Virus record (IMG/VR): IMGVR_UViG_2602041644_000008 | Coordinates: 1 to 37,809 of that record | DNA length: 37,809 nucleotides | Direction: 5' to 3' (one strand) | From: a virus | Lineage: Duplodnaviria > Heunggongvirae > Uroviricota > Caudoviricetes | Part shown: positions 1 through 36,378 of the stretch, piece after piece | How the letters are laid out: each line of letters starts with the position of its first letter | Position numbering within the stretch: the stretch's first letter is position 1 | Position numbers and translations under genes: made by a program | The notes under the pieces: model-generated | Seen by the model: only the letters and a program-made list of their open reading frames with translations | Databases searched by the model: none | What the model was told of the DNA's origin: nothing

Positions 1-516
1 ATGAAATTTAAAAAATGTCTTCTGCCTGTGGCAATGTTAGCGTCATTCACTCTGGCAGGATGCCAGTCAAATGCTGATGATCATGCCGCCGATGTTTATC
101 AAACCGATCAACTGAATACCAAACAAGAAACTAAAACCGTTAATATTATTTCCATTCTTCCCGCAAAAGTTGCCGTAGACAACTCCCAAAATAAACGGAA
201 CGCACAAGCCTTCGGCGCGCTTATTGGTGCAGTCGCTGGCGGTGTAATCGGCCACAACGTGGGGTCTGGCAGCAATTCCGGAACGACGGCAGGTGCAGTT
301 GGCGGCGGAGCTGTTGGCGCGGCAGCGGGTTCTATGGTGAATGATAAAACCTTAGTGGAAGGTGTTTCTCTAACGTATAAGGAAGGCACCAAAGTGTATA
401 CCTCTACCCAGGTGGGTAAAGAGTGCCAGTTTACGACAGGTTTAGCCGTTGTTATTACCACGACGTATAACGAAACGCGTATTCAGCCAAATACGAAATG
501 TCCTGAAAAGAGCTAA
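1..516 (+). CDS. yfgH: Host outer-membrane glycine-zipper lipoprotein (YfgH-like)
   Basis: 171-aa ORF with a signal peptide ending in lipobox LTLAG|C and a Gly/Ala-rich glycine-zipper core (GALIGAVAGGVIGHNVGSGS...). I recognise the sequence as E. coli YfgH from memory. The yfgH-yfgI-guaA neighbourhood is reproduced here. Confidence 0.8.
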   Translation: MKFKKCLLPVAMLASFTLAGCQSNADDHAADVYQTDQLNTKQETKTVNIISILPAKVAVDNSQNKRNAQAFGALIGAVAGGVIGHNVGSGSNSGTTAGAVGGGAVGAAAGSMVNDKTLVEGVSLTYKEGTKVYTSTQVGKECQFTTGLAVVITTTYNETRIQPNTKCPEKS

Positions 517-6040: not shown

Positions 6041-6055
6041 TTACCTTTCAGGTAA
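6041..6055. promoter_or_regulatory. Operator copy (exact TTACC-N5-GGTAA)
   Basis: TTACCTTTCAGGTAA, intergenic, about 50 nt upstream of the LexA box and small antirepressor gene. Preceded by TAGATA. Confidence 0.75.
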
Positions 6056-6092: not shown

Positions 6093-6112
6093 TACTGTAT
6101 AAATATACAGTT
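6093..6112. promoter_or_regulatory. LexA (SOS) box
   Basis: TACTGTATAAATATACAGTT is a CTG-N10-CAG palindrome with an AT-rich centre, a near-perfect match to the E. coli consensus TACTG(TA)5CAGTA. It ends 5 nt before ATG 6118 and 20 nt before ATG 6133. Confidence 0.85.
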
Positions 6113-7224: not shown

Positions 7225-7254
7225 TTGATTTTAATATTTCTTCGCGTTTATCAT
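7225..7254 (+). promoter_or_regulatory. Sigma70-like promoter for the antirepressor leader
   Basis: TTGATT-N18-TATCAT. The -35 hexamer is the right arm of an 8-bp inverted repeat AATCAACC-N6-GGTTGATT (7209-7230). The last T of the -10 is the first T of the operator at 7254. Confidence 0.5.
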
Positions 7255-8272: not shown

Positions 8273-8301
8273 TTGCAGACCGGGGGTGAATAGCGTACTA
8301 T
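8273..8301 (+). promoter_or_regulatory. Sigma70-like promoter of the YafO-like cassette
   Basis: TTGCAG-N17-TACTAT. The last T of the -10 is the first T of the operator at 8301. Confidence 0.55.
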
Positions 8302-17484: not shown

Positions 17485-19955
17485 CAGAATCCCCCAACAG
17501 TAAGGCGAGGAATAACGGCAAGAACAGACAGCGGCAACGGATCAAGCTGACGGATTTTTACACGTCCGTTTTTGCCCCAGTTACTGTCCAGTTTCACTTC
17601 TACTTTTCCGGTAGCATCATCAACAGGATCATCGTAGAACTCGAATTCACGCTGTGGATATTCGTACCATTTACCGCCGGGCGTAGTCGCCCAGATGCCG
17701 CGACTGGCATTCACAACCAGAGTAACGGAGGGGATCACCTGTTTTTTGTCCAGCAGCGTTTCCTGTCCGTTAATGTTGATATCCAGTGTTTCGAATTCAG
17801 CAGTTATTGGCAGGCCGATGTGCACTACAGCCCCCGGAGATTCCAGCGTGACGGCACCTCCGGAAACCACTTTCTGTGGTTCCACGTTCGCATCAGAGAG
17901 AATGTTTACGGTCTGGCCTTCAAGATGAGACAGGCCTCCAAATGTCCGGCGCGCCATCTGCCAGTTCGTGGTGGCCACATTCCTGAGGGATGGCGGGACG
18001 TTCCTGTTAGCACGAACCACTACAGCGGTGTTGCTGGTTACAGAAATAATGTCGCAACGTAATTCTTTTGACACTTCATCGCCAGTATCAGGATCAGTTC
18101 CGGTATAAGGGAACTGTAGTTGCGCGCCGACATCACTACTGGTGAAGTACGCACCACCAGAAACACTGATTGTATATTCCGCATGGTAATCCCATTCACC
18201 AGAACCACCAGTGATGGTCATCGTTCTGTCAGACGTATTTCTTCCATCATAGCTAAGGCCAGAATCAACAAAGAAAGCATCTTCATCGCTGGTAAATAAA
18301 CGGCTGGACAGTCGCTCGATGTATCTCACTGTTTGCCCGTTAACGGTTCGGTTAACGACGAAATACACCGCATCTTCATTGCCTTCGCTGATACTGCATG
18401 TGCTTTCATATTTTCCGGTACTGGATTGTGGTGCCCATGCAAAAACCTGCTGATCACGCAAATAGGTCATCACCAGTAATTTACCGTCATCACGAATGCA
18501 GAAGGCACTGGAGTAAGGGACAATCGAGAAGCACCAGTCAACAATGCTGTGCTTCTGAAAAAGATGATTGGCAAGGATGGTCAGGTCGTTCCCCTGATAG
18601 CCGTCAACATCGAATGAGTAGGCCAGATCACGGACAACGCTGCCTTTCTCCTGGACGAACAGAGCAATATTCGCCACGGCAATTGGCGGGACGTTGCTTG
18701 AGCCATTTGATCCCTGAGAGCTGAATGCAAATGATGATGGGGTTAACACTTTGTTCTGGTCGCCGGTGATGACGTACTCACCTCCGGAAGTCAGCGCCAC
18801 CAGAGAACCAACATCAATCAGGTGACGGATCTCATTAACCTGACGCCCGGCATAGGTGTAGATAATTCTGTCGTCATCCTGCGTAGGATTGCTTTTGCCA
18901 AAATCCTTATAATCCCCGGTACGGCTGGCCCAGATAGTCTGAGGGAACGCAGTCGATGCGGCGAAGTAAAGACGTTGTTGATAATAAACAACAGTGCCAG
19001 GATAACCATTAACACTGTTCCAGGCATATTTAGCCCATTTATAGCTGGCATTATCCTCGCCAACGACCTGCGAAGGGATATAGGAAATCACCTCGGCAGT
19101 TGCAGTAGTTCCATTTGCAGCAGTGATACGGGCAATGCCAAAACCACTGTGCAGATATTCCCACTCAATGCCGGTATCATCATCACCGGATCCGCCCCAG
19201 CCATCCCATGATGTGCCTTCTGTATGCGAAGGGCGCAAAGTGCCTGTTTTACCTGCTGTAACAGCGCGATAGTAGTTACTGTCTGCACGGCGAACATCGT
19301 CAATCGACGTACTCTTACTGGTTTCCCATACCGGCACTGAATCCACTGCAGGCTGTTCCAGATAGAACAATTTGCCTACCTGCTCCGAGCCAAAAATAGA
19401 GGCGCTTGCCGTTAACGTAATTGTCCCGGTGCTGGCGCTGGCATAAACCGTCACTGACTCGTCAATATTGATATCTTCAAATGGTCCGTTCTTCGTTACC
19501 ACATCAACCAGTTGCCAGTTGTCATGCGCATAGCGACGCAACTCTTTCGGCGGGTATGCCGGATGAACCAGCGTAAGCACGTCTGCGCTTTGCGTGAATT
19601 TAATTCGGAACAGATCGGCTTCAGTATATGGCGTGGCAATTTCATAAATAACATTGCTGCTGTTCAGCACCAACGCACCATCTTTGATAACGCGCATGTA
19701 CTGGTGTCCGAACTCCAGAGCATAGGTCTGAACCGTCGAGAACTGGAACGGGATCAGGCGGCATTTCCGATTTTGGTATTTGGCGGCACCGACAAAACGC
19801 GTACCAGGTCGATTCTCAACGCCGCCATACTGCCGCACGATAAAGTTATCGCACTTGCGCAATGCTACCTGGTACTTCGCCATGTCAATACGCCCGTACA
19901 ACGACGGTCCAATCTCACCACCGGCAAAACTGGGCTGGATCCAACTGATAGCCAT
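17484..19955 (-). CDS. Tail hub / nozzle protein (tail tubular protein B-like)
   Basis: 823 aa, beta-rich. Lies directly after the adaptor candidate and before the ejection proteins, as in T7-type podoviruses. Confidence 0.55.
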   Translation of the reverse strand: MAISWIQPSFAGGEIGPSLYGRIDMAKYQVALRKCDNFIVRQYGGVENRPGTRFVGAAKYQNRKCRLIPFQFSTVQTYALEFGHQYMRVIKDGALVLNSSNVIYEIATPYTEADLFRIKFTQSADVLTLVHPAYPPKELRRYAHDNWQLVDVVTKNGPFEDINIDESVTVYASASTGTITLTASASIFGSEQVGKLFYLEQPAVDSVPVWETSKSTSIDDVRRADSNYYRAVTAGKTGTLRPSHTEGTSWDGWGGSGDDDTGIEWEYLHSGFGIARITAANGTTATAEVISYIPSQVVGEDNASYKWAKYAWNSVNGYPGTVVYYQQRLYFAASTAFPQTIWASRTGDYKDFGKSNPTQDDDRIIYTYAGRQVNEIRHLIDVGSLVALTSGGEYVITGDQNKVLTPSSFAFSSQGSNGSSNVPPIAVANIALFVQEKGSVVRDLAYSFDVDGYQGNDLTILANHLFQKHSIVDWCFSIVPYSSAFCIRDDGKLLVMTYLRDQQVFAWAPQSSTGKYESTCSISEGNEDAVYFVVNRTVNGQTVRYIERLSSRLFTSDEDAFFVDSGLSYDGRNTSDRTMTITGGSGEWDYHAEYTISVSGGAYFTSSDVGAQLQFPYTGTDPDTGDEVSKELRCDIISVTSNTAVVVRANRNVPPSLRNVATTNWQMARRTFGGLSHLEGQTVNILSDANVEPQKVVSGGAVTLESPGAVVHIGLPITAEFETLDININGQETLLDKKQVIPSVTLVVNASRGIWATTPGGKWYEYPQREFEFYDDPVDDATGKVEVKLDSNWGKNGRVKIRQLDPLPLSVLAVIPRLTVGGF

Positions 19956-20962: not shown

Positions 20963-21400
20963 TTAACCAGTTACTTTTGAGCGGATCGGGTACGGCGTAT
21001 TGGCATCAACATCCAGACTGATACCCGCAGTGAATTTGCCAGCCGTTAGTGGGCCAGTTGCGACGGAGTAGTTAACACGCAGATATCGCTGAACACCGGC
21101 AGGCACCTTTGCAGAAACAACTCGTTTACCTGCTGTCAGGGCGGTCTTTGCCAGTGCGCCACTATCATAAATAGTGGTCCATGAGCTGTTATTCTCACTC
21201 GTCTGCAACTGGATGTTTACAGTTGCCTCACCACTTGCCGTGGCGGCTTCGTTAACCAGCACCCAAAACTCAAGCGGATAACCCACGCCGATATCACGAC
21301 GTTTTCCGTCAATTGGACCGAGATCGATTACGTCAGTAGAAGCCGCGGTATTCGTAACCGCCTGAGCTTCGGAGAACATCAACAGTTTGTCGGTGATCAT
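20963..21400 (-). CDS. Capsid decoration/cement protein candidate
   Basis: 145 aa, beta-rich, immediately after the major capsid gene. SD GGAGAAAG. Composition resembles BPP-1 Bbp16-type cement proteins (recollection). Confidence 0.45.
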   Translation of the reverse strand: MITDKLLMFSEAQAVTNTAASTDVIDLGPIDGKRRDIGVGYPLEFWVLVNEAATASGEATVNIQLQTSENNSSWTTIYDSGALAKTALTAGKRVVSAKVPAGVQRYLRVNYSVATGPLTAGKFTAGISLDVDANTPYPIRSKVTG

Positions 21401-26407: not shown

Positions 26408-26419
26408 GTGACATGTCAC
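26408..26419. repeat. 12-bp perfect palindrome GTGACATGTCAC, copy 1
   Basis: Lies between the Gp49-like stop and its terminator. The 14-mer CGTGACATGTCACA is identical to the copy at 28672-28685. Confidence 0.7.
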
Positions 26420-26423
26420 AAAC

Positions 26424-26452
26424 AGCCAGCCTATGAGCTGGCTTTGTTTTAT
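26424..26452 (+). terminator. Terminator after the Gp49-like gene
   Basis: AGCCAGC-N6-GCTGGCT followed by TTGTTTTAT. Confidence 0.7.
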
Positions 26453-26493: not shown

Positions 26494-27969
26494 TTAAGCA
26501 TAGGGATCGTAATCTGTAATGGCCTTGCCTTGCTGGTTCTGCTGACCTGGAATTCGCAGACGCTTCGACACAGGGAAAGCAAACGTCAGCAATAGCGCAT
26601 CGCCTTTACCCGGCGAACGCCCAAGCCGCTCCTTGATATCTTCCTTCGGTTCGATAACGATTTTACCGTCCACTCGAACTTTGTACTCTGCCGCCGACAG
26701 GTCGTCCGCTGTTTCCTGGTCATCAAGCATCCCGCCCAGCCTCAGCCATGTCTTGCATGAGTTGAACATCTCCCCACGCTTGTTGAGCATCTGCGGGTCA
26801 GTAGACGCGCCACCGAACGGAACAAGTTGCCATGTGCGCCCCCAACCGTCACCGATTGACTTCAGACCGGTACCGTAACCAAAGTCGATGAACACTGCGT
26901 CAGCCTGATACAGGTCTTCAAAGTCAGCGATACGCTTCGCCATAATCAGATCGTCGGTAGTCTTGTTGCCAGTCCACAGCACCTTACTGTGTAGCCCCTG
27001 CCGCAGGTATATCACCGCGTCATCAACGCCTGAATATGCCGGGTCAACACCGATTATCACCGGAGCATGCGCCACCTGCGCAGCGGTTACCACCCGTTTC
27101 ATTGCCTCATCAGTAAGACCGGTAGGGATAAACTGCAATTCAGATGCATCAGGGAATATGCCGCGCACACGGATTTTAACGAAGTCGCTGTCTTCCCCGT
27201 AGTCATCAACCCATTTCTGCAACTGCTGTTTGTTAGTGCCTTCCACCGTCCGGCTGTCAATCTGCGCAGTTTTCCAGCGGTGTTTATATTTGCGGAAACA
27301 TTCGCGGAAACGCCCGGTGTTACGTGTAGGGTTTCCGAACGCCACCCAGATAATCTCAGTGTCTTCGTCCGTAAGCGCACCCTCAGCAACTTCCCACACC
27401 AGATCCGCAATGTTCGACGCTTCATCGAATACCACGATGATGCGTTTGCGCTCGTTGTGTAGTCCGGCGAATGCCTCAGTGTTGTGCTCAGACCAGGGTA
27501 TTGCGTCAGCCCGCCACCGCTTGTCGTGCCCAGGGTCATTGCTGTACATCGCGGTAGCGGTACAGGTAAACCAGTCTTTCGTGATAGCAAGGTTAGACCA
27601 CTTGATAATTTCCGGCCAGGTCTTCGTTCGTAGCTGGTTGTCGGTGTTAGCGGTCACCACAACCTTACAATCCTCGCAAGTGGACATGCCCCAGTTGATC
27701 AGCATTGAGATGAATGCGGATTTACCAATACCGTGACCAGAAGCGCGTGCCAGCATAAGCGGCTGATAGCGCGTCTCTGGATTCTGCAGGTGATCACGTA
27801 TCTCTCGGAACGCATCAGCCTGCCACTGACGTGGGCCGGTGGCATGTGCCAGTTCAGTCCCCTCTTCCCCCCACGGGAACGCATAGAGAGCATAGCCAAG
27901 CGGATCGTGAGTGAACCCTGCAATATCCTCGATCAACTGCTCTTCAGGAGATAACGCTGTATCTGTCAC
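26494..27969 (-). CDS. Terminase large subunit
   Basis: 491 aa. ATPase-like N-terminal half (ARASGHGIGKSAF Walker-A-like; IIVVFDEAS Walker-B-like). ATGA overlap with the small-subunit gene. Confidence 0.85.
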   Translation of the reverse strand: MTDTALSPEEQLIEDIAGFTHDPLGYALYAFPWGEEGTELAHATGPRQWQADAFREIRDHLQNPETRYQPLMLARASGHGIGKSAFISMLINWGMSTCEDCKVVVTANTDNQLRTKTWPEIIKWSNLAITKDWFTCTATAMYSNDPGHDKRWRADAIPWSEHNTEAFAGLHNERKRIIVVFDEASNIADLVWEVAEGALTDEDTEIIWVAFGNPTRNTGRFRECFRKYKHRWKTAQIDSRTVEGTNKQQLQKWVDDYGEDSDFVKIRVRGIFPDASELQFIPTGLTDEAMKRVVTAAQVAHAPVIIGVDPAYSGVDDAVIYLRQGLHSKVLWTGNKTTDDLIMAKRIADFEDLYQADAVFIDFGYGTGLKSIGDGWGRTWQLVPFGGASTDPQMLNKRGEMFNSCKTWLRLGGMLDDQETADDLSAAEYKVRVDGKIVIEPKEDIKERLGRSPGKGDALLLTFAFPVSKRLRIPGQQNQQGKAITDYDPYA

Positions 27970-28562
27970 TGATTACCATCCTGACGTTCTTTGAGTCGCT
28001 TCCTGGCTGCCGCTATGCGATCAGCAATTGTCACATTCACATTAACATCCAGGCGTTCTTTGAACGCGTTGACATCAACATGCTTACCAATCAGCTCAAG
28101 GTTCTTCACCTTGTCAGGCCATTTAATTTTTTTGAGGATTGTCTCTATCGAATCCTCGTTCATGTTCATGATGGTCGATGACAGATCAAAGCCACTAAGC
28201 GTAGTGCGCCAGATTTTCGGCCACTCACGGATTGGTTTAAGGCTCCCATCGTCGTTGAGGATGTCGATCACGTCCATCTGGTCGATCTCCACCAGGCGCA
28301 TGAGAACGTAATCAGCACTGACGCGCATTCGTTTGTTGCGCTCCTCCATCAACTCGGCAATCCGTTTTTGAATGCGTTCATCGCGCATCATGACACTGGC
28401 TTTAACTGCCGCTGTATTTGGGGAGAATCCTGCGTTAATCGCTGCCTGAGTTTGGTTTTCAGGCGTTTTGATGTATGACTGGCAATAAGCCTCCTGCATT
28501 GTTGTTAGTGGCTTAAATTGCGTTGATTTGCGTTTATAGGTTTTAGGTTCAGCAGGCATCAT
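27966..28562 (-). CDS. Terminase small subunit
   Basis: The track ORF extends to 28640, but that extension contains a terminator hairpin and two operator copies. ATG 28562/28559 (MMPAEPKTYKRK...) follows SD GGTGG. The HTH-like segment QEAYCQSYIKTPENQTQAAINAGFS is typical of Terminase_2-type small subunits. Confidence 0.75.
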   Translation of the reverse strand: MMPAEPKTYKRKSTQFKPLTTMQEAYCQSYIKTPENQTQAAINAGFSPNTAAVKASVMMRDERIQKRIAELMEERNKRMRVSADYVLMRLVEIDQMDVIDILNDDGSLKPIREWPKIWRTTLSGFDLSSTIMNMNEDSIETILKKIKWPDKVKNLELIGKHVDVNAFKERLDVNVNVTIADRIAAARKRLKERQDGNQ

Positions 28563-28576
28563 AACCACCGTGGTAA
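28562..28576. promoter_or_regulatory. Operator-like copy (1 mismatch) over the terS SD/start codon
   Basis: TAACCACCGTGGTAA, 18 bp centre-to-centre from the exact copy at 28580. Confidence 0.5.
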
Positions 28577-28579
28577 TAG

Positions 28580-28594
28580 TTACCGTTGTGGTAA
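28580..28594. promoter_or_regulatory. Operator copy (exact) in the terminase leader
   Basis: TTACCGTTGTGGTAA, about 20 nt upstream of the terS start. Confidence 0.7.
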
Positions 28595-28600
28595 TAGTAC

Positions 28601-28631
28601 CATGCAAAATAAAGCCGCCATAGTTGGCGGC
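28601..28631 (-). terminator. Rho-independent terminator in the late-operon leader
   Basis: The minus strand reads GCCGCCA-ACTA-TGGCGGC followed by TTTATTTTG. It lies between the palindrome at 28673 and terS. Confidence 0.7.
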
Positions 28632-28672
28632 AGTATTCAAAATCCATCAAATTCATCATGCATAATCTACTC

Positions 28673-28684
28673 GTGACATGTCAC
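28673..28684. repeat. 12-bp perfect palindrome GTGACATGTCAC, copy 2
   Basis: Overlaps the TGA stop of the 115-aa gene, about 40 nt upstream (minus-strand sense) of the leader terminator. Confidence 0.7.
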
Positions 28685-29028
28685 ACTATTAATTTCGTTT
28701 CATGCCAGCCTTTAGTCACCCAGCATTGCGAGTCACCATTACACGGGCATGAATTAACGGGAACTCTCTCGCCGCACTTACCGCAAAGTTTTCTGCTGAT
28801 CGATTTTATACGCCCGCGCACACGTGCATCATCCTGGCGGATCAGCAGCGCGATGTACTCGGCCATTTCATAGGGATCGCGACCAGGGCGCCGGGCGGCG
28901 CAGTTCCGCGCCAGCATTTCCTGCTCCTGCTTATCCAGCACCAGTTCAATTTTGCGCTCACCGGCGGCGGACTGCCGAGCGCGCTGCGCGGCTTTGCGTT
29001 CTGCGGGGGATTTAGCCACGAATCGCAC
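28681..29028 (-). CDS. Small basic protein with C-terminal Cys cluster; candidate late-gene regulator
   Basis: 115 aa with a GTG start. Arg/Ala-rich N-terminus (KSPAERKAAQRARQSAAGERK) and C-terminal CGKCGERVPVNSCPCNGDSQC. Last gene before the late leader. Confidence 0.55.
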   Translation of the reverse strand: MRFVAKSPAERKAAQRARQSAAGERKIELVLDKQEQEMLARNCAARRPGRDPYEMAEYIALLIRQDDARVRGRIKSISRKLCGKCGERVPVNSCPCNGDSQCWVTKGWHETKLIV

Positions 29029-29134
29029 TCCACGCCAGATTGATTAATGACTCCCAGGCAATATAAACCCGGATACCAGCAGCCAGGCCGAAACCAATCA
29101 CCATGGCATAAAGCAGAGCGTTGCACTTGTTCAT
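29012..29134 (-). CDS. Unlisted 40-aa single-TM peptide ORF
   Basis: ATG overlaps the TAA of the DUF551 gene (TAATG). Sequence MNKCNALLYAMVIGFGLAAGIRVYIAWESLINLAWSAIRG. Below the ORF-track size cutoff; no independent support. Confidence 0.35.
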   Translation of the reverse strand: MNKCNALLYAMVIGFGLAAGIRVYIAWESLINLAWSAIRG

Positions 29135-33192: not shown

Positions 33193-33233
33193 TTAAAAAC
33201 CACATAAGACACGAAATCAATAGATCTTAGAAC

Positions 33234-33261
33234 ATTTTATTACCTAGCAGGTAATTATCAA
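33234..33261 (-). promoter_or_regulatory. Near-consensus internal early promoter with an exact operator copy (33240-33254) filling its spacer
   Basis: The minus strand reads TTGATA-N16-TAAAAT, and the 16-nt spacer contains TTACCTGCTAGGTAA. A weak GCGC-GATA-GCGC + T7 hairpin lies just upstream at 33270-33289. Confidence 0.65.
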
Positions 33262-33291
33262 GACGTAAAAAAATGCGCTATCGCGCTGGTA

Positions 33292-34092
33292 TTACTTGAT
33301 AAATCCTGCCGCCTTTCCCCGCCTGTATTCCTCCATCAGCCACTGCGCCGGTGTTATTCCCCCCAGGGTAGCGGCGTTAGGCATACACCCGAAACTTCGC
33401 CCTGGTGGATGGTAAACGCCTCTCCCTGTGTCCGGAGGCGTACTCATGGGTTCTGGCTTTGCCTGTATGCTGATCACCGGATCGGGTATCTGCTGTCCGG
33501 AAGCCACCTTTTTCGCCCAATCATCAAGCAGCCTGCGCGCGTGTTTCTCAACCTCAATCTCGCTAAGCTGGCGCTGATACATTGCACGGCGGGTATCACA
33601 TACGACCCAGTACATAACCGGATGCCGCCACGGGAATCTTTCGGGACCACCAGGATATAAACTTTTTTCCTTGCTGTACCGGTGAAACTCCGCCATCACA
33701 TCGTCAATGGTGACGCCAAGAACCATCTTGCTGTCTTTACACCACTTGATAAATTGCCCTGGCGACGGCCAGAACGGAGATTCACTGGCGCGGGCGTGGC
33801 GCATACCAGCAGAAACCTGTTCACGGGTTCGGATCCCCCCTTCGGCAAACGCAGCAATCCACTGCTGTTTTGCAGCAACTTCCTGCTCTGGCGTCTTCAG
33901 GTTGGTTACCACTGCCGCCGGAAACAGTTGTTTCAACTGTTTGAAAAGGGCATCAACAAGCCTCTCTGCTGACATGTTCACTACGTTGTCATTGTTGGTG
34001 TACTGATGCTCATAACCTGACATGCGAGAAAGGGCTTCTCCGTCACGGTTTTGTATCGCGGTAAAAACGTTGTTCACAAGAAATCCTCCCAT
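33292..34092 (-). CDS. Lambda P-like replication protein (helicase loader)
   Basis: 266 aa. The alternative start GTG 34077 has SD GGAGGA and a GTGA overlap with the O-like stop. The block QQWIAAFAEGGIRTREQVSAGMRHARASESPFWPSPGQFIKWCK parallels lambda P RRQWVLAFRENGITTMEQVNAGMRVARRQNRPFLPSPGQFVAWCR. Confidence 0.85.
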   Translation of the reverse strand: MGGFLVNNVFTAIQNRDGEALSRMSGYEHQYTNNDNVVNMSAERLVDALFKQLKQLFPAAVVTNLKTPEQEVAAKQQWIAAFAEGGIRTREQVSAGMRHARASESPFWPSPGQFIKWCKDSKMVLGVTIDDVMAEFHRYSKEKSLYPGGPERFPWRHPVMYWVVCDTRRAMYQRQLSEIEVEKHARRLLDDWAKKVASGQQIPDPVISIQAKPEPMSTPPDTGRGVYHPPGRSFGCMPNAATLGGITPAQWLMEEYRRGKAAGFIK

Positions 34093-34889
34093 GCTTCAGG
34101 GCTGTTCCAGTGCGGAACGTTGTTATCAGGTAATGTTGATTGCTTCTGTCTGCTAATCTGCAGCCGCCTTGCCAGCTTCTGCTCCCACTGTGCCTGATGG
34201 TATGCCCTACCCTCAGCCATCCAGTAAATTCTGAACTCTGCAAGTTCCTGTGCCGTTGGCAGACTGTCCAGGTAGATCCCCTGCAATGAGCTTTTCCGAA
34301 GAAAGTCATCTGATGGCTGCCATTGTTCATGCATGACAAATTTGCCTAATTGCCCTGGCCCACCAGGAGGAACAAAGTTATTCATCACGGCGTTGTTTGC
34401 GCCGGGGTCATGATGCACAGAATCCCCGTTTTTTGTCCTGCTCTCCCTCTCTTGGTTAAATGACTGGTTATATGACTGGTTCTGGATCCCGTTTTTGGGA
34501 TCATTCAACATCCCGTTTTTGGGATCATTCAACATCCCGTTTTTGGGTATATTCCCGTTTTCGGGAACATTACCGTTTTCGGGTTCATTACCCCCTTCCC
34601 GGTTGCCTTTAATGTTCCCGTTTTTGGTTATATTAAGAGAGAAAACCCGCACTCTTTTCGTCGCTCCCTTTCTCTCTCCGGTATCTGAAATAAGCCCCAT
34701 TTTCATGAGCGATATAAGCCCGGCCTGCACGGTTTTTTTATTCAGGCAAGTGTCTTTAACGAGGCGTTCTATGCTGGGGTAGCAGAGGTTATATTCATCG
34801 GCTCTGTCAGCCATCGAGAGCAGTATGAGCTTTAATGACGAGCTACCTGGATCTGTCTCCCAGGCCCAATCTGTTGCATGTCTGCTCAT
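34074..34889 (-). CDS. Replication initiator (O-like functional analogue; N-terminal winged HTH)
   Basis: 271 aa, SD GGAG. N-terminal wHTH (LKLILLSMADRADEYNLCYPSIERLVKDTCLNKKTVQAGLISL). The central repeat-encoded NGN/PKNG segment coincides with DNA iterons. Lies directly upstream of the P-like gene. Confidence 0.75.
   Translation of the reverse strand: MSRHATDWAWETDPGSSSLKLILLSMADRADEYNLCYPSIERLVKDTCLNKKTVQAGLISLMKMGLISDTGERKGATKRVRVFSLNITKNGNIKGNREGGNEPENGNVPENGNIPKNGMLNDPKNGMLNDPKNGIQNQSYNQSFNQERESRTKNGDSVHHDPGANNAVMNNFVPPGGPGQLGKFVMHEQWQPSDDFLRKSSLQGIYLDSLPTAQELAEFRIYWMAEGRAYHQAQWEQKLARRLQISRQKQSTLPDNNVPHWNSPEAWEDFL
34460..34629. repeat. Origin-like iteron array inside the initiator gene
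   Basis: TCCCGTTTTTGGGA-type units start at 34487, 34511, 34535, 34553, 34571, (34589 degenerate) and 34616, with spacings of 24, 24, 18, 18, 18 and 27 bp. A tandem ATGACTGGTT x2 lies at 34460-34482. Confidence 0.8.
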
Positions 34890-35185: not shown

Positions 35186-35200
35186 TTACCTTTGAGGTAC
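35186..35200. promoter_or_regulatory. Operator-like copy (1 mismatch)
   Basis: TTACCTTTGAGGTAC, immediately downstream (minus-strand sense) of the post-cro terminator. Confidence 0.45.
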
Positions 35201-35206
35201 GAATAG

Positions 35207-35233
35207 ATATGAAAAGACCGCCGGGTGGCGGTC
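35207..35233 (-). terminator. Rho-independent terminator after the cro-like gene
   Basis: The minus strand reads GACCGCC-ACCC-GGCGGTC followed by TTTTCATATC. Confidence 0.7.
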
Positions 35234-35255
35234 TACAGAGGGTTGTAGCTGGATA

Positions 35256-35486
35256 TCATGAGTAGAAGAAGTATGCCAGTTCTGCTTTTGAGTGCAGCCA
35301 TTGTCTTGATTTACAGGCTTTAAAAAGCCCATTCATCAATACCTTACCTGGCATTTTGCGCTTACCTGTTAAGTGAGTCTGGATATAGTGACTCGTCGTT
35401 CCGGCTTCCTGTGCGAAGGCTTCACGCTCATCCGGAGTAAGTGCAAGCCAGTGCTTTTTGAAATCGAAATGTCCGTTATCGCTCAT
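35256..35486 (-). CDS. Cro-like HTH regulator (first gene of the rightward early operon)
   Basis: 76 aa, divergent from the repressor gene across a three-operator region. HTH-like AQEAGTTSHYIQTHLTG. Confidence 0.65.
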   Translation of the reverse strand: MSDNGHFDFKKHWLALTPDEREAFAQEAGTTSHYIQTHLTGKRKMPGKVLMNGLFKACKSRQWLHSKAELAYFFYS

Positions 35487-35522
35487 AGCTATTGCCTGAT
35501 ATTTATTTCAGATAATAAATAT

Positions 35523-35537
35523 TCACCTATAAGGTAA
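35523..35537. promoter_or_regulatory. Operator-like copy (1 mismatch) in the switch region
   Basis: TCACCTATAAGGTAA. Lies in the spacer of a minus-strand TTGATT...GAATAT promoter-like pair. Confidence 0.55.
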
Positions 35538-35553
35538 CAAAAATCAAGGATAG

Positions 35554-35568
35554 TTACCCATGAGGTGC
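35554..35568. promoter_or_regulatory. Operator-like copy (2 mismatches) in the switch region
   Basis: TTACCCATGAGGTGC. Its left 13 nt are identical to the copy at 33178. It is 17 bp centre-to-centre from 35571. Confidence 0.45.
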
Positions 35569-35570
35569 AT

Positions 35571-35585
35571 TTACCTGTTGGGTAA
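35571..35585. promoter_or_regulatory. Operator copy (exact) in the switch region
   Basis: TTACCTGTTGGGTAA. Overlaps a plus-strand TTTACC-N18-TAAATT promoter-like pair facing the repressor gene. Confidence 0.7.
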
Positions 35586-35640
35586 TATTGCTTTAAATTG
35601 AATCATCTTCTGATTCAGATATGAGGCGATTTTCCAGAAA

Positions 35641-36225
35641 ATGAAAAGTATCCAGGACGTCCGCAGGCAAAATCTCAACGACTTGATCGACCGTGAATTC
35701 AATGGTGTTCAGACGCGGATGGCTGAAAAACTTGGAACTCAGGCAAATCTGGTAAACCGCTGGGCTCTTGGCAAGAAGGTTATCGGCGACCAGGTTGCGC
35801 GAAAAATTGAAGCTGCCGCCAATAAACCCCGTAACTGGCTTGATATCGATCGCTCGCTTTCTCAGGAAGGTTTTCAGCCTGTCGGACCAAGCGACATTGG
35901 TCAACTGGCGGCTCACAACCTGGAACGCTGGATGAGCGAAAGCCGCGACCTTTCAACGCAGGGAAAACTTCACCGCGCATCCGGCGTCGCCCAGGTAACA
36001 ATCAGCCGCCTGTTAAACAATGAGGTCAGCGTTTCCATTTCCACCCTGGAGAATGTTGCATCCGCATTTGGGCGTCACGGATATGAATTACTGATTCACC
36101 CGCACGACCCCGCGACTATCAACTATGACCGCTCGCGCTACGCATTGTTACCTGAAACAGAGAAGGCAAAGATCGAAAGTTACATTGAATTTGTCATCAA
36201 CCAGAACGAAAAAAACAAACAATAA
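35641..36225 (+). CDS. Prophage repressor candidate with two HTH domains and no S24 peptidase domain
   Basis: 194 aa. The N-terminal HTH ends in ARKIEAAANKPRNWLD (CI/C2-like). The second is XRE-type (LHRASGVAQVTISRLLNNEVSVSISTLENVASAFG). No Ser/Lys autocleavage module is recognisable. Divergent from cro; a strong terminator follows. Confidence 0.7.
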   Translation: MKSIQDVRRQNLNDLIDREFNGVQTRMAEKLGTQANLVNRWALGKKVIGDQVARKIEAAANKPRNWLDIDRSLSQEGFQPVGPSDIGQLAAHNLERWMSESRDLSTQGKLHRASGVAQVTISRLLNNEVSVSISTLENVASAFGRHGYELLIHPHDPATINYDRSRYALLPETEKAKIESYIEFVINQNEKNKQ

Positions 36226-36246
36226 AATCATATTTTTCAGTAAGTA

Positions 36247-36270
36247 AGCCGCCTTCTGGCGGCTTTTTTA
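36247..36270 (+). terminator. Terminator after the repressor gene
   Basis: AGCCGCC-TTCT-GGCGGCT followed by TTTTTTA. Confidence 0.85.
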
Positions 36271-36282
36271 TTGCCTATTTGA

Positions 36283-36297
36283 TTACCTAACGGGTAA
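36283..36297. promoter_or_regulatory. Operator copy (exact), upstream of the early-left promoter
   Basis: TTACCTAACGGGTAA, 20 nt upstream of TTGACA. Confidence 0.7.
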
Positions 36298-36316
36298 TTT
36301 TTTTAACTCATATCTA

Positions 36317-36345
36317 TTGACATCAAACCAGATACGCATAATTAT
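36317..36345 (+). promoter_or_regulatory. Early-left (PL-like) promoter
   Basis: TTGACA-N17-AATTAT, bracketed by operator copies at 36283 and 36345. Confidence 0.55.
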
Positions 36346-36359
36346 TACCTCAACGGTAA
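36345..36359. promoter_or_regulatory. Operator copy (exact) at the -10/+1 of the early-left promoter
   Basis: TTACCTCAACGGTAA. Confidence 0.7.
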
Positions 36360-36378
36360 CAGACCGAGGTAACAAGTT

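Follow-up and report, generated by a model that had tools for sequence, protein, structure and literature searches.

In the 37,809-nucleotide (nt) stretch analysed here (the window; positions 1 to 37,809 of IMG/VR virus record IMGVR_UViG_2602041644_000008), the leader of the small-terminase gene terS combines an intrinsic terminator with a predicted extended -10 promoter that overlaps a binding motif of the prophage repressor Rep, and comparison with related loci suggests that terS and terL are most likely driven by this Rep-controlled promoter of their own. We put the probability of this reading, in which the terminator acts as an insulator and the promoter is repressed by Rep at two operators, O1 and O2, at roughly 0.6. 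The window is an Escherichia coli prophage of the epsilon15/phiV10-like (Uetakevirus) type, a temperate podophage, and the region is 91-99% identical to epsilon15/phiV10-type podophages such as EC.W1-9, TL-2011b, phiV10, and vB_EcoP_ZX5. Read on the minus strand, an immunity region at ~35-36 kb is followed by the early genes, a 115-amino-acid (aa) open reading frame (ORF) homologous to epsilon15 gp49, terS, terL, and the structural genes, and the locus is where the early rightward operon gives way to the packaging operon. An earlier note on this DNA had read the leader as a promoter, a short terminated RNA, and an antitermination design, with the Cys-cluster protein of the 115-aa ORF as the candidate regulator. 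Every sequence feature that it listed was confirmed in place on the minus strand; its account of how they work together fared less uniformly, as described below.

A terminator and an extended -10 promoter precede terS

The terminator (28605..28631, minus strand) lies at the end of the early operon and was identified by terminator scan and folding. Its hairpin pairs GCCGCCA (28631-28625) with TGGCGGC (28620-28614) across a 4-nt ACTA loop, giving a 7-bp stem with six G-C pairs, and stands directly ahead of a U-tract (TTTATTTT, 28613-28606; also written UUUAUUUU), the arrangement of an intrinsic (rho-independent) terminator. The fold has an energy of -13.8 kcal/mol (z = -3.9) and none of 200 shuffled sequences was as stable, so that the strong intrinsic terminator proposed ahead of terS stands. 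Across 18 distinct close leaders, one of its 27 columns varies.

Downstream of the hairpin lies the predicted extended -10 promoter of terS-terL (TGgTACTAT, 28594..28602, minus strand), with a predicted start near 28587. A comparison of 30 distinct leaders, drawn from 86 related loci, revealed an invariant block, TG.TA.TATTACC.....GGTAA, in 30 of 30; the positions free to vary are the 'n' of the extended -10, the third -10 base, and the operator centre. TGn thus sits directly upstream of a -10 hexamer whose second base is A and whose sixth is T, and the last T of this TGnTAnTAT element is also the first base of O1, whose half-sites are invariant in all 30 leaders. The same register of -10 and operator occurs elsewhere in the window, as AATTAT/TACC at 36340, TTGCAG-17-TACTAT/TACC at 8301, and TTGATT-18-TATCAT/TACC at 7254 (the slash marks the end of the -10). 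In four leader variants (L087, L088, L064, and L077) the terminator is missing and a umuD-like gene abuts the promoter/operator. As an extended -10 on O1 is invariant and the terminator can be lost, a repressor-controlled promoter belonging to terS itself is most likely and antitermination does not appear to be required, which argues against the claim that late expression must depend on antitermination or on a dedicated activator.

Between the hairpin and a palindrome at the end of the 115-aa ORF lies a spacer (28632..28672, minus strand) that is the most variable segment of the region, with 7 of 41 columns varying among the 18 close leaders. In relatives the same slot is occupied either by a 70-aa ORF or by a umuD-like or 85-aa gene behind a LexA-box promoter, and in the window the spacer looks like the scar of such an accessory-gene ('moron') slot. 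The slot is an insertion hotspot between palindrome and terS leader (L005, L064, L086-L090), of which the window retains only the scar GCATGAT. No conserved promoter was found between palindrome and hairpin, and the notion of a promoter giving a short terminated RNA was dropped. The lone promoter-like match in the spacer, GTGACA-18-CATGAT, is weak (9 of 12 positions) and not conserved in epsilon15, and was rejected as a sigma70 promoter. We also rejected membership in a known RNA family: a match to rseX, an Hfq-binding small RNA, spans the full length of the model (28607-28692, minus strand) and consists mostly of the terminator and its U-rich tail, and at 28.6 bits against a gathering score of 50 (E 0.09-0.44) it is not significant.

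Rep operators lie in the terS leader and across the window

O1 (TTACCACAACGGTAA, 28580..28594, both strands) matches the operator motif exactly and overlaps the last -10 base and the predicted start. O2 (TTACCACGGTGGTTA, 28562..28576, both strands) has one mismatch and covers the Shine-Dalgarno sequence GGTGG (28569-28565) and the first ATG (28562-28560). An apparent 11-nt direct repeat (ACTATTACCAC), found twice, exactly, 18 nt apart, is explained by the ACTAT that stands ahead of each palindromic operator. The pair had been described as tandem operators over the terS Shine-Dalgarno sequence; the match to the Rep consensus supports reading them as operators, but they are better seen as two adjacent palindromic sites of which only O2 covers that sequence. 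O2 is degenerate in epsilon15 too, and is not conserved in Klebsiella-type leaders.

The operator consensus, A-TTACC-N5-GGTAA-T, was counted as TTACC-N5-GGTAA with at most one mismatch. It occurs 16 times in the window versus a mean of 0.67 in shuffled sequence, and 0 of 100 shuffles reached 16. Operators cluster at 35186-36359 around the Rep gene, others stand ahead of further operons, and two are those of the terS leader. The 16 sites extend over 2187-36359 (for example 6041, 7161, 7254, 8301, 25435, 33178, 33240, 35523, 35571, 36283, and 36345), and the operator-like sites at 2187 and 2942, with one mismatch each, may be due to chance. Two geometries are seen: in one the operator begins at the last T of the -10 (7254, 8301, 36345, and 28580), while in the other it fills the spacer between -35 and -10 (33240 and 35523). 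An order of terminator, operator, and promoter recurs at 33225-33300 and 36246-36360. At the former, a GCGCGATAGCGC hairpin with T7 (33261-33234, minus strand) lies directly ahead of TTGATA-a-operator-TAAAAT, and at the latter a hairpin (36246-36265, plus strand) is followed by the operator at 36283 and the promoter TTGACA-17-AATTAT.

The cognate repressor gene is present in the same element. Rep (35641..36225, plus strand) matches the SPC32H repressor (5d50_A, E 4e-42) and is 42% identical to the epsilon15 repressor, while a 90-aa ORF at 6118-6390 matches the SPC32H antirepressor, Ant (5d50_E, E 1.4e-47). A LexA box (TACTGTATAAATATACAGT, 6093-6111) is directly upstream of ant, with the Rep operator at 6041 just upstream of it. 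The window therefore resembles SPC32H in its Rep and Ant homologues and in the LexA box upstream of ant, and carries multiple palindromic operators. The Rep/Ant lysis-lysogeny switch of SPC32H (PDB 5d50) was reportedly described by Kim and Ryu in 2013 and by Kim et al. in 2016.

These features suggest a scheme for the leader in which the terminator (28631-28606) would end or attenuate transcription from the early operon and from any slot gene, thereby insulating terS from upstream transcription. In the lysogen, Rep would bind O1 and the adjoining, weaker O2, as the sequence of the two sites predicts, and would occlude the -10, the start site, and the ribosome-binding site. Inactivation of Rep by LexA-controlled Ant would then free the predicted terS promoter together with the dozen or so other Rep sites.

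Much of this architecture is directly homologous to that of epsilon15. In the epsilon15 record (AY150271.2), the hairpin GCCGCC-GACTA-TGGCGGC at 39646..39672 is annotated as a stem_loop, 'rho-independent terminator', and TTACCAAAACGGTAAT at 12..27, just upstream of terS, is annotated 'protein_bind: repressor'; seven further repressor sites are annotated, several of them beside the repressor gene. The palindrome GTGACATGTCAC overlaps the gp49 stop codon in both phages, whereas the spacer from palindrome to terminator is longer and different in the window, and the O1 centre differs. The record annotates no promoter at the junction, no palindrome, and no function for gp49. The terminator and repressor site are thus features already annotated for epsilon15, the leader is ordinary for its phage group, and the extended -10 is a modest refinement over the known annotation. 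Repressor sites on a terminase leader had struck the earlier note as unusual, which may hold for phages generally but not for this group, where they are the annotated state in epsilon15.

As the repeats lie directly upstream of terS, they could instead be packaging signals, that is, pac- or cosB-like sites read by the small terminase; pacL of SPP1-type phages is likewise immediately upstream of terS. Several GenBank records of the phage group are moreover linearised in the intergenic region upstream of terS, with starts equivalent to window positions 28680, 28660, 28634, and 28605. Since these starts differ between phages, they look conventional rather than physical; the same motif is also present at ~13 further sites in the window, among them the immunity region and the starts of other operons, and the epsilon15 record labels the site as a repressor site. 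A packaging role is hence very unlikely, and we discarded pac or small-terminase sites as the identity of the repeats because the motif is the genome-wide Rep operator.

Control at the level of RNA is still less credible. Here the repeats would pair into a stem-loop that sequesters the Shine-Dalgarno sequence and start codon of terS, and a 161-nt fold does give a second long hairpin pairing ACCAC with GGUGG (z = -3.3 overall). This z score stems mostly from the terminator, and the RNA starting at the predicted promoter is not unusually stable (z = -0.08), so that occlusion of the ribosome-binding site by leader RNA was rejected as not significant once the terminator is removed. The ACCAC/GGUGG pairing is a by-product of the palindromic operators, and neither O2 nor the pairing is conserved in Klebsiella-type leaders.

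The early operon ends in a gene for a small Cys-cluster protein

The last gene of the early rightward operon (28681..29028, minus strand) encodes the RHH-like (ribbon-helix-helix-like), Cys-cluster homologue of epsilon15 gp49, to which it is 82% identical. The ORF (29028-28681) is 115 aa long from the GTG at 29028; most homologues begin at the equivalent of the GTG at 29019, for a length of 112 aa, and this is probably the true start here too. A 40-aa hydrophobic ORF (29012-29134; PHROG 5525, 7e-30) overlaps the start region of the 115-aa ORF, and the 112-aa start at 29019 overlaps the stop region of this ORF by 8 nt (29019-29012), which suggests translational coupling of the two genes.

An exhaustive homologue search gave 149 representative clusters, and 54 diverse members were aligned; scans of viral contigs with single distant family members yielded few loci. 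The Cys residues of the window protein are arranged C82-x2-C85-x8-C94-x-C96-x5-C102, confirming the cluster seen in the earlier note but with a spacing of x8 where x9 had been given. Across the alignment the pattern is CxxC...C...C, in which two Cys are invariant and a third is present in at least 90% of sequences. The basic N-terminus is kept as well, with R8 and R13 nearly invariant, and a strand-helix-helix pattern is apparent. The window protein has no significant Pfam domain and matches PHROG 536, a "transcriptional regulator". Its AlphaFold2 model is confident (predicted local distance difference test score 92.6) and contains helices at 5-18, 30-42, 52-74, and 100-108. Although weak matches to RHH Pfam models were obtained for 5 of the 54 family members and RHH proteins are the top structural neighbours of the model, the structural scores are low, and Foldseek searches of the PDB and BFVD returned nothing informative. 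The model and alignment suggest that the protein most likely adopts an RHH-like fold with a C-terminal Cys4 cluster, which probably binds zinc. Its family is uncharacterised, and the protein is plausibly a DNA-binding regulator at the early/late boundary.

The protein had been likened to the late activators Ogr of P2 and C of Mu. We found no match to the Ogr_Delta, Mor/C, or Q-family Pfam models at E<=1, either for the protein itself or for the 54 members, and the likeness was abandoned. P2 Ogr, P4 Delta, and Mu C resemble it in being small and phage-encoded, and a Cys4 zinc site is present in Ogr. The Cys spacing of Ogr, however, is CxxC-x22-CxxxxC, unlike the CxxC-x8-C(xC)-x5-C of the window protein, and Mu C has no zinc cluster. 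What survives of the proposed Cys-cluster regulator is a plausible DNA-binding regulator at the boundary that is not Ogr-, Mu C-, or Q-like.

An alternative assignment is a DksA/TraR-type factor that would bind RNA polymerase in its secondary channel, either in place of DNA or in addition to it, and reprogramme host or phage transcription globally, with the palindrome unrelated to it. When the family profile was compared with PDB sequences, the top three hits were TraR (twice) and YbiI, in an alignment that spans the long helix and the Cys cluster, and hhalign of the profile against TraR gave a probability of 57%; the order of helix, Cys cluster, and helix also agrees with TraR. The PDB scores (E ~0.05-0.065) are nevertheless not significant, and none of the 54 members matches the zf-dskA_traR Pfam model at E<=1. 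The fourth Cys of the TraR motif is unaligned, the family using a different Cys, and an N-terminal extension of 47 residues stands ahead of the helix on which entry into the channel would depend. Co-occurrence of the gene with the palindrome points, moreover, to DNA binding, and we regard a TraR-type role as unlikely.

A palindrome accompanies the small-protein gene

A perfect 12-bp palindrome, GTGACATGTCAC (28673..28684, both strands), holds the TGA stop codon (28683-28681) of the small-protein gene. None of its 12 columns varies among the 18 close leaders, and in close relatives GTGACATGTCAC sits 3' of the small-protein gene regardless of which gene comes next. Palindromes of the form GTGAC-NN-GTCAC were also found at or near the stop codons of homologues that are only 30-40% identical, in N15, P2-like phages of Yersinia, Vibrio phages, and metagenomic clades (distant loci are given by our L handles). 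They overlap the homologue's stop codon in L092 and in N15 gp46 (both GTGACTGGTCAC), L102 (GTGACCGGTCAC), L103 (GTGACGTGTCAC), L101 (GTGACACGTCAC), and Yersinia phage vB_YenM_201.16 (GTGACGCGTCAC), and lie 3' of it by 14 nt in L093 (GTGACAGGTCAC), 137 nt in L091 (GTGACGCGTCAC), and 226 nt in Vibrio phage K308 (GTGACACGTCAC). In L096, two copies are located 2.1 kb downstream of the gene, behind inserted genes. Across homologues the arms are invariant and the two central bases vary, and folded as RNA the window palindrome reaches only -2.9 kcal/mol (z = -0.3); this is the combination expected of a DNA site that a symmetric dimer recognises. Half-sites alone showed no enrichment.

Genomes carry two or three copies of the palindrome, and every copy inspected is at an intergenic junction; from 10 fixed bases and ~37 kb, we estimate a chance expectation of ~0.035 per genome. 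The window has two palindromes and epsilon15 three. The second exact GTGACATGTCAC in the window (26408..26419, both strands) is flanked on one side by the stop of terL (26494) and on the other by the end of a 118-aa gene in reverse orientation (26403), adjoining a bidirectional terminator hairpin, AGCCAGC-CTATGA-GCTGGCT (26424-26443), which from its sequence could terminate transcription of both the reverse 118-aa gene and terL. All three epsilon15 copies (39612, 2142, and 19517) are 2-22 nt from terminator hairpins: those at 2142 and 19517 are each 2-5 nt away, the same post-terL arrangement as in the window being present, and the copy at 19517 overlaps the gp18 stop codon 2 nt ahead of its terminator. 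K308 has copies at 21342, 33227, and 35942, the last of them 31 nt upstream of terS. Taken together, the palindrome at the stop codons of distant homologues, its recurrence at junctions, and the lambda Q-like layouts of the distant loci described below make a regulatory role for the gene-plus-palindrome pair at operon junctions plausible, and GTGACATGTCAC is a likely candidate binding site of the RHH-like protein. The module appears to be undescribed, as a literature search for the palindrome returned only unrelated papers with no mention of the motif.

The strand-helix-helix core predicted for the small protein matches that of the RHH regulators of phages and plasmids, such as P22 Arc and Mnt, CopG, and MetJ. 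Its target would be a short palindrome whose arms are invariant, to which the MetJ box, AGACGTCT, is comparable in kind. Unlike these regulators, the small protein has an extra N-terminal basic helix and the C-terminal Cys4 cluster, and its candidate site is at the 3' end of its own gene rather than at a promoter.

Late-gene layouts at distant loci

At distant homologue loci the small-protein gene is typically the last or near-last early gene. Six of them (L092, L093, L102, L103, L091, and K308) share the order gene, palindrome, promoter, leader, one or two strong terminators, and genes for holin and lysozyme. Late promoters at these distant loci range from near-consensus to weak, with TTGACA-16-TATAAG in L102. 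A leader motif, (A/G)CGTGGTG, CACGGTGG, or AACGTGATG, is shared ~8-11 nt after the -10 by L091, L092, L093, L096, L102, L103, and L116, and several distant loci also have ACCAC-AAAA repeats upstream of the -35. The two kinds of element could be pause or loading elements, or the sites of another regulator. ACCAC is common to the window leader and the distant late promoters, which we set aside as coincidence given its lack of conservation in the epsilon15 group. Across loci, palindrome and promoter are ~50 nt to more than 700 nt apart, and a fixed distance of about -93 from palindrome to start, suggested by L092, L093, and the window, was dropped on account of L096 and K308, where it is 115 to more than 700 nt.

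These layouts bear on a different reading of the window, in which transcription gets to the late genes solely by reading through the terminator, with the 115-aa protein as an antiterminator analogous to lambda Q. It would load at or near the palindrome and render RNA polymerase insensitive to the hairpin at 28631-28606 and to those of later junctions. As in the Q/PR'/tR' system of lambda, the regulator gene closes the series of early genes, with a DNA site next to it, and one or more terminators precede the late genes. The palindrome-promoter-terminator-lysis layout of L092, L093, L102, L103, and K308, the annotation of no other antiterminator in K308, the closeness of all three epsilon15 palindromes to terminator hairpins, and the weakness of the predicted terS promoter speak for it as well. 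The epsilon15 group, on the other hand, has no conserved promoter between palindrome and terminator: unlike lambda, the window has none upstream of its terminator, and its late genes would have their own repressor-controlled promoter. The four terminator-less leader variants keep the gene, the palindrome, and the promoter/operator. In N15, the homologue gp46 occurs together with a distinct Q-like protein, gp40, a 'late transcription activator', and the small protein has no sequence or fold similarity to any Q family. The candidate site of the gp49 family lies 50 to more than 700 nt from the promoter, a variable distance, while the Q site of lambda is inside the promoter. On balance we consider dependence of the window's late genes on a Q-like antiterminator doubtful.

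The scheme that we favour, a Rep-repressed promoter behind an insulating terminator, also includes the small protein. Bound at palindromes beside terminators, it would most likely modulate transcription crossing from operon to operon, and in this way it would raise late expression or set its timing, in addition to the control exerted through the Rep-repressed promoters. A positive role of this sort, whether through antitermination or activation of late expression, is only tentatively proposed; it comes near to the idea of the earlier note, although the protein family and the DNA logic are different. With equal reserve, we suggest that gp49-like proteins may be unrecognised, widespread regulators of late transcription in epsilon15-, N15-, P2-, and Vibrio/HK97-like phages that read GTGAC-NN-GTCAC, a Q analogue on an RHH-plus-zinc scaffold. 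They would let RNA polymerase pass the adjoining terminators or would activate the downstream late promoter.

Several points weigh against the favoured interpretation as a whole. The predicted terS promoter has no -35 and its -10 is imperfect (TACTAT), which leaves its activity a prediction from sequence conservation; the invariance of TAT could reflect an extended operator consensus instead of promoter function. The epsilon15 repressor sites are known from GenBank annotation only. Binding of the palindrome by the small protein is inferred from their co-occurrence, and the palindrome is absent near the gene in three clades (L098, L099, and L104). Its orientation relative to terminators is not uniform.

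Other features of the window

The terS gene itself (27966..28562, minus strand) encodes a Terminase_2 small terminase (Pfam PF03592, 1.5e-29; PHROG 51) and may start at ATG 28562 or ATG 28559. Within the replication-initiator (O-like) gene at 34074-34889, three adjoining tandem-repeat arrays with periods of 12, 24, and 18 (34453-34592) are probably origin iterons; the 24-nt unit is 100% identical across 2.6 copies.

Implications

Pathogenic E. coli, Salmonella, and Klebsiella commonly harbour epsilon15-type phages as prophages. For these phages the leader itself adds little, while the gene-plus-site module could matter. If the small protein controls terminator read-through or late promoters, it would explain the timing of late-gene expression in Uetakeviruses and in many Vibrio, Yersinia, and N15-like phages, the latter three being without a recognised late regulator. 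If this is true, the pairing of gene and palindrome would also provide a simple annotation rule for locating early/late boundaries.

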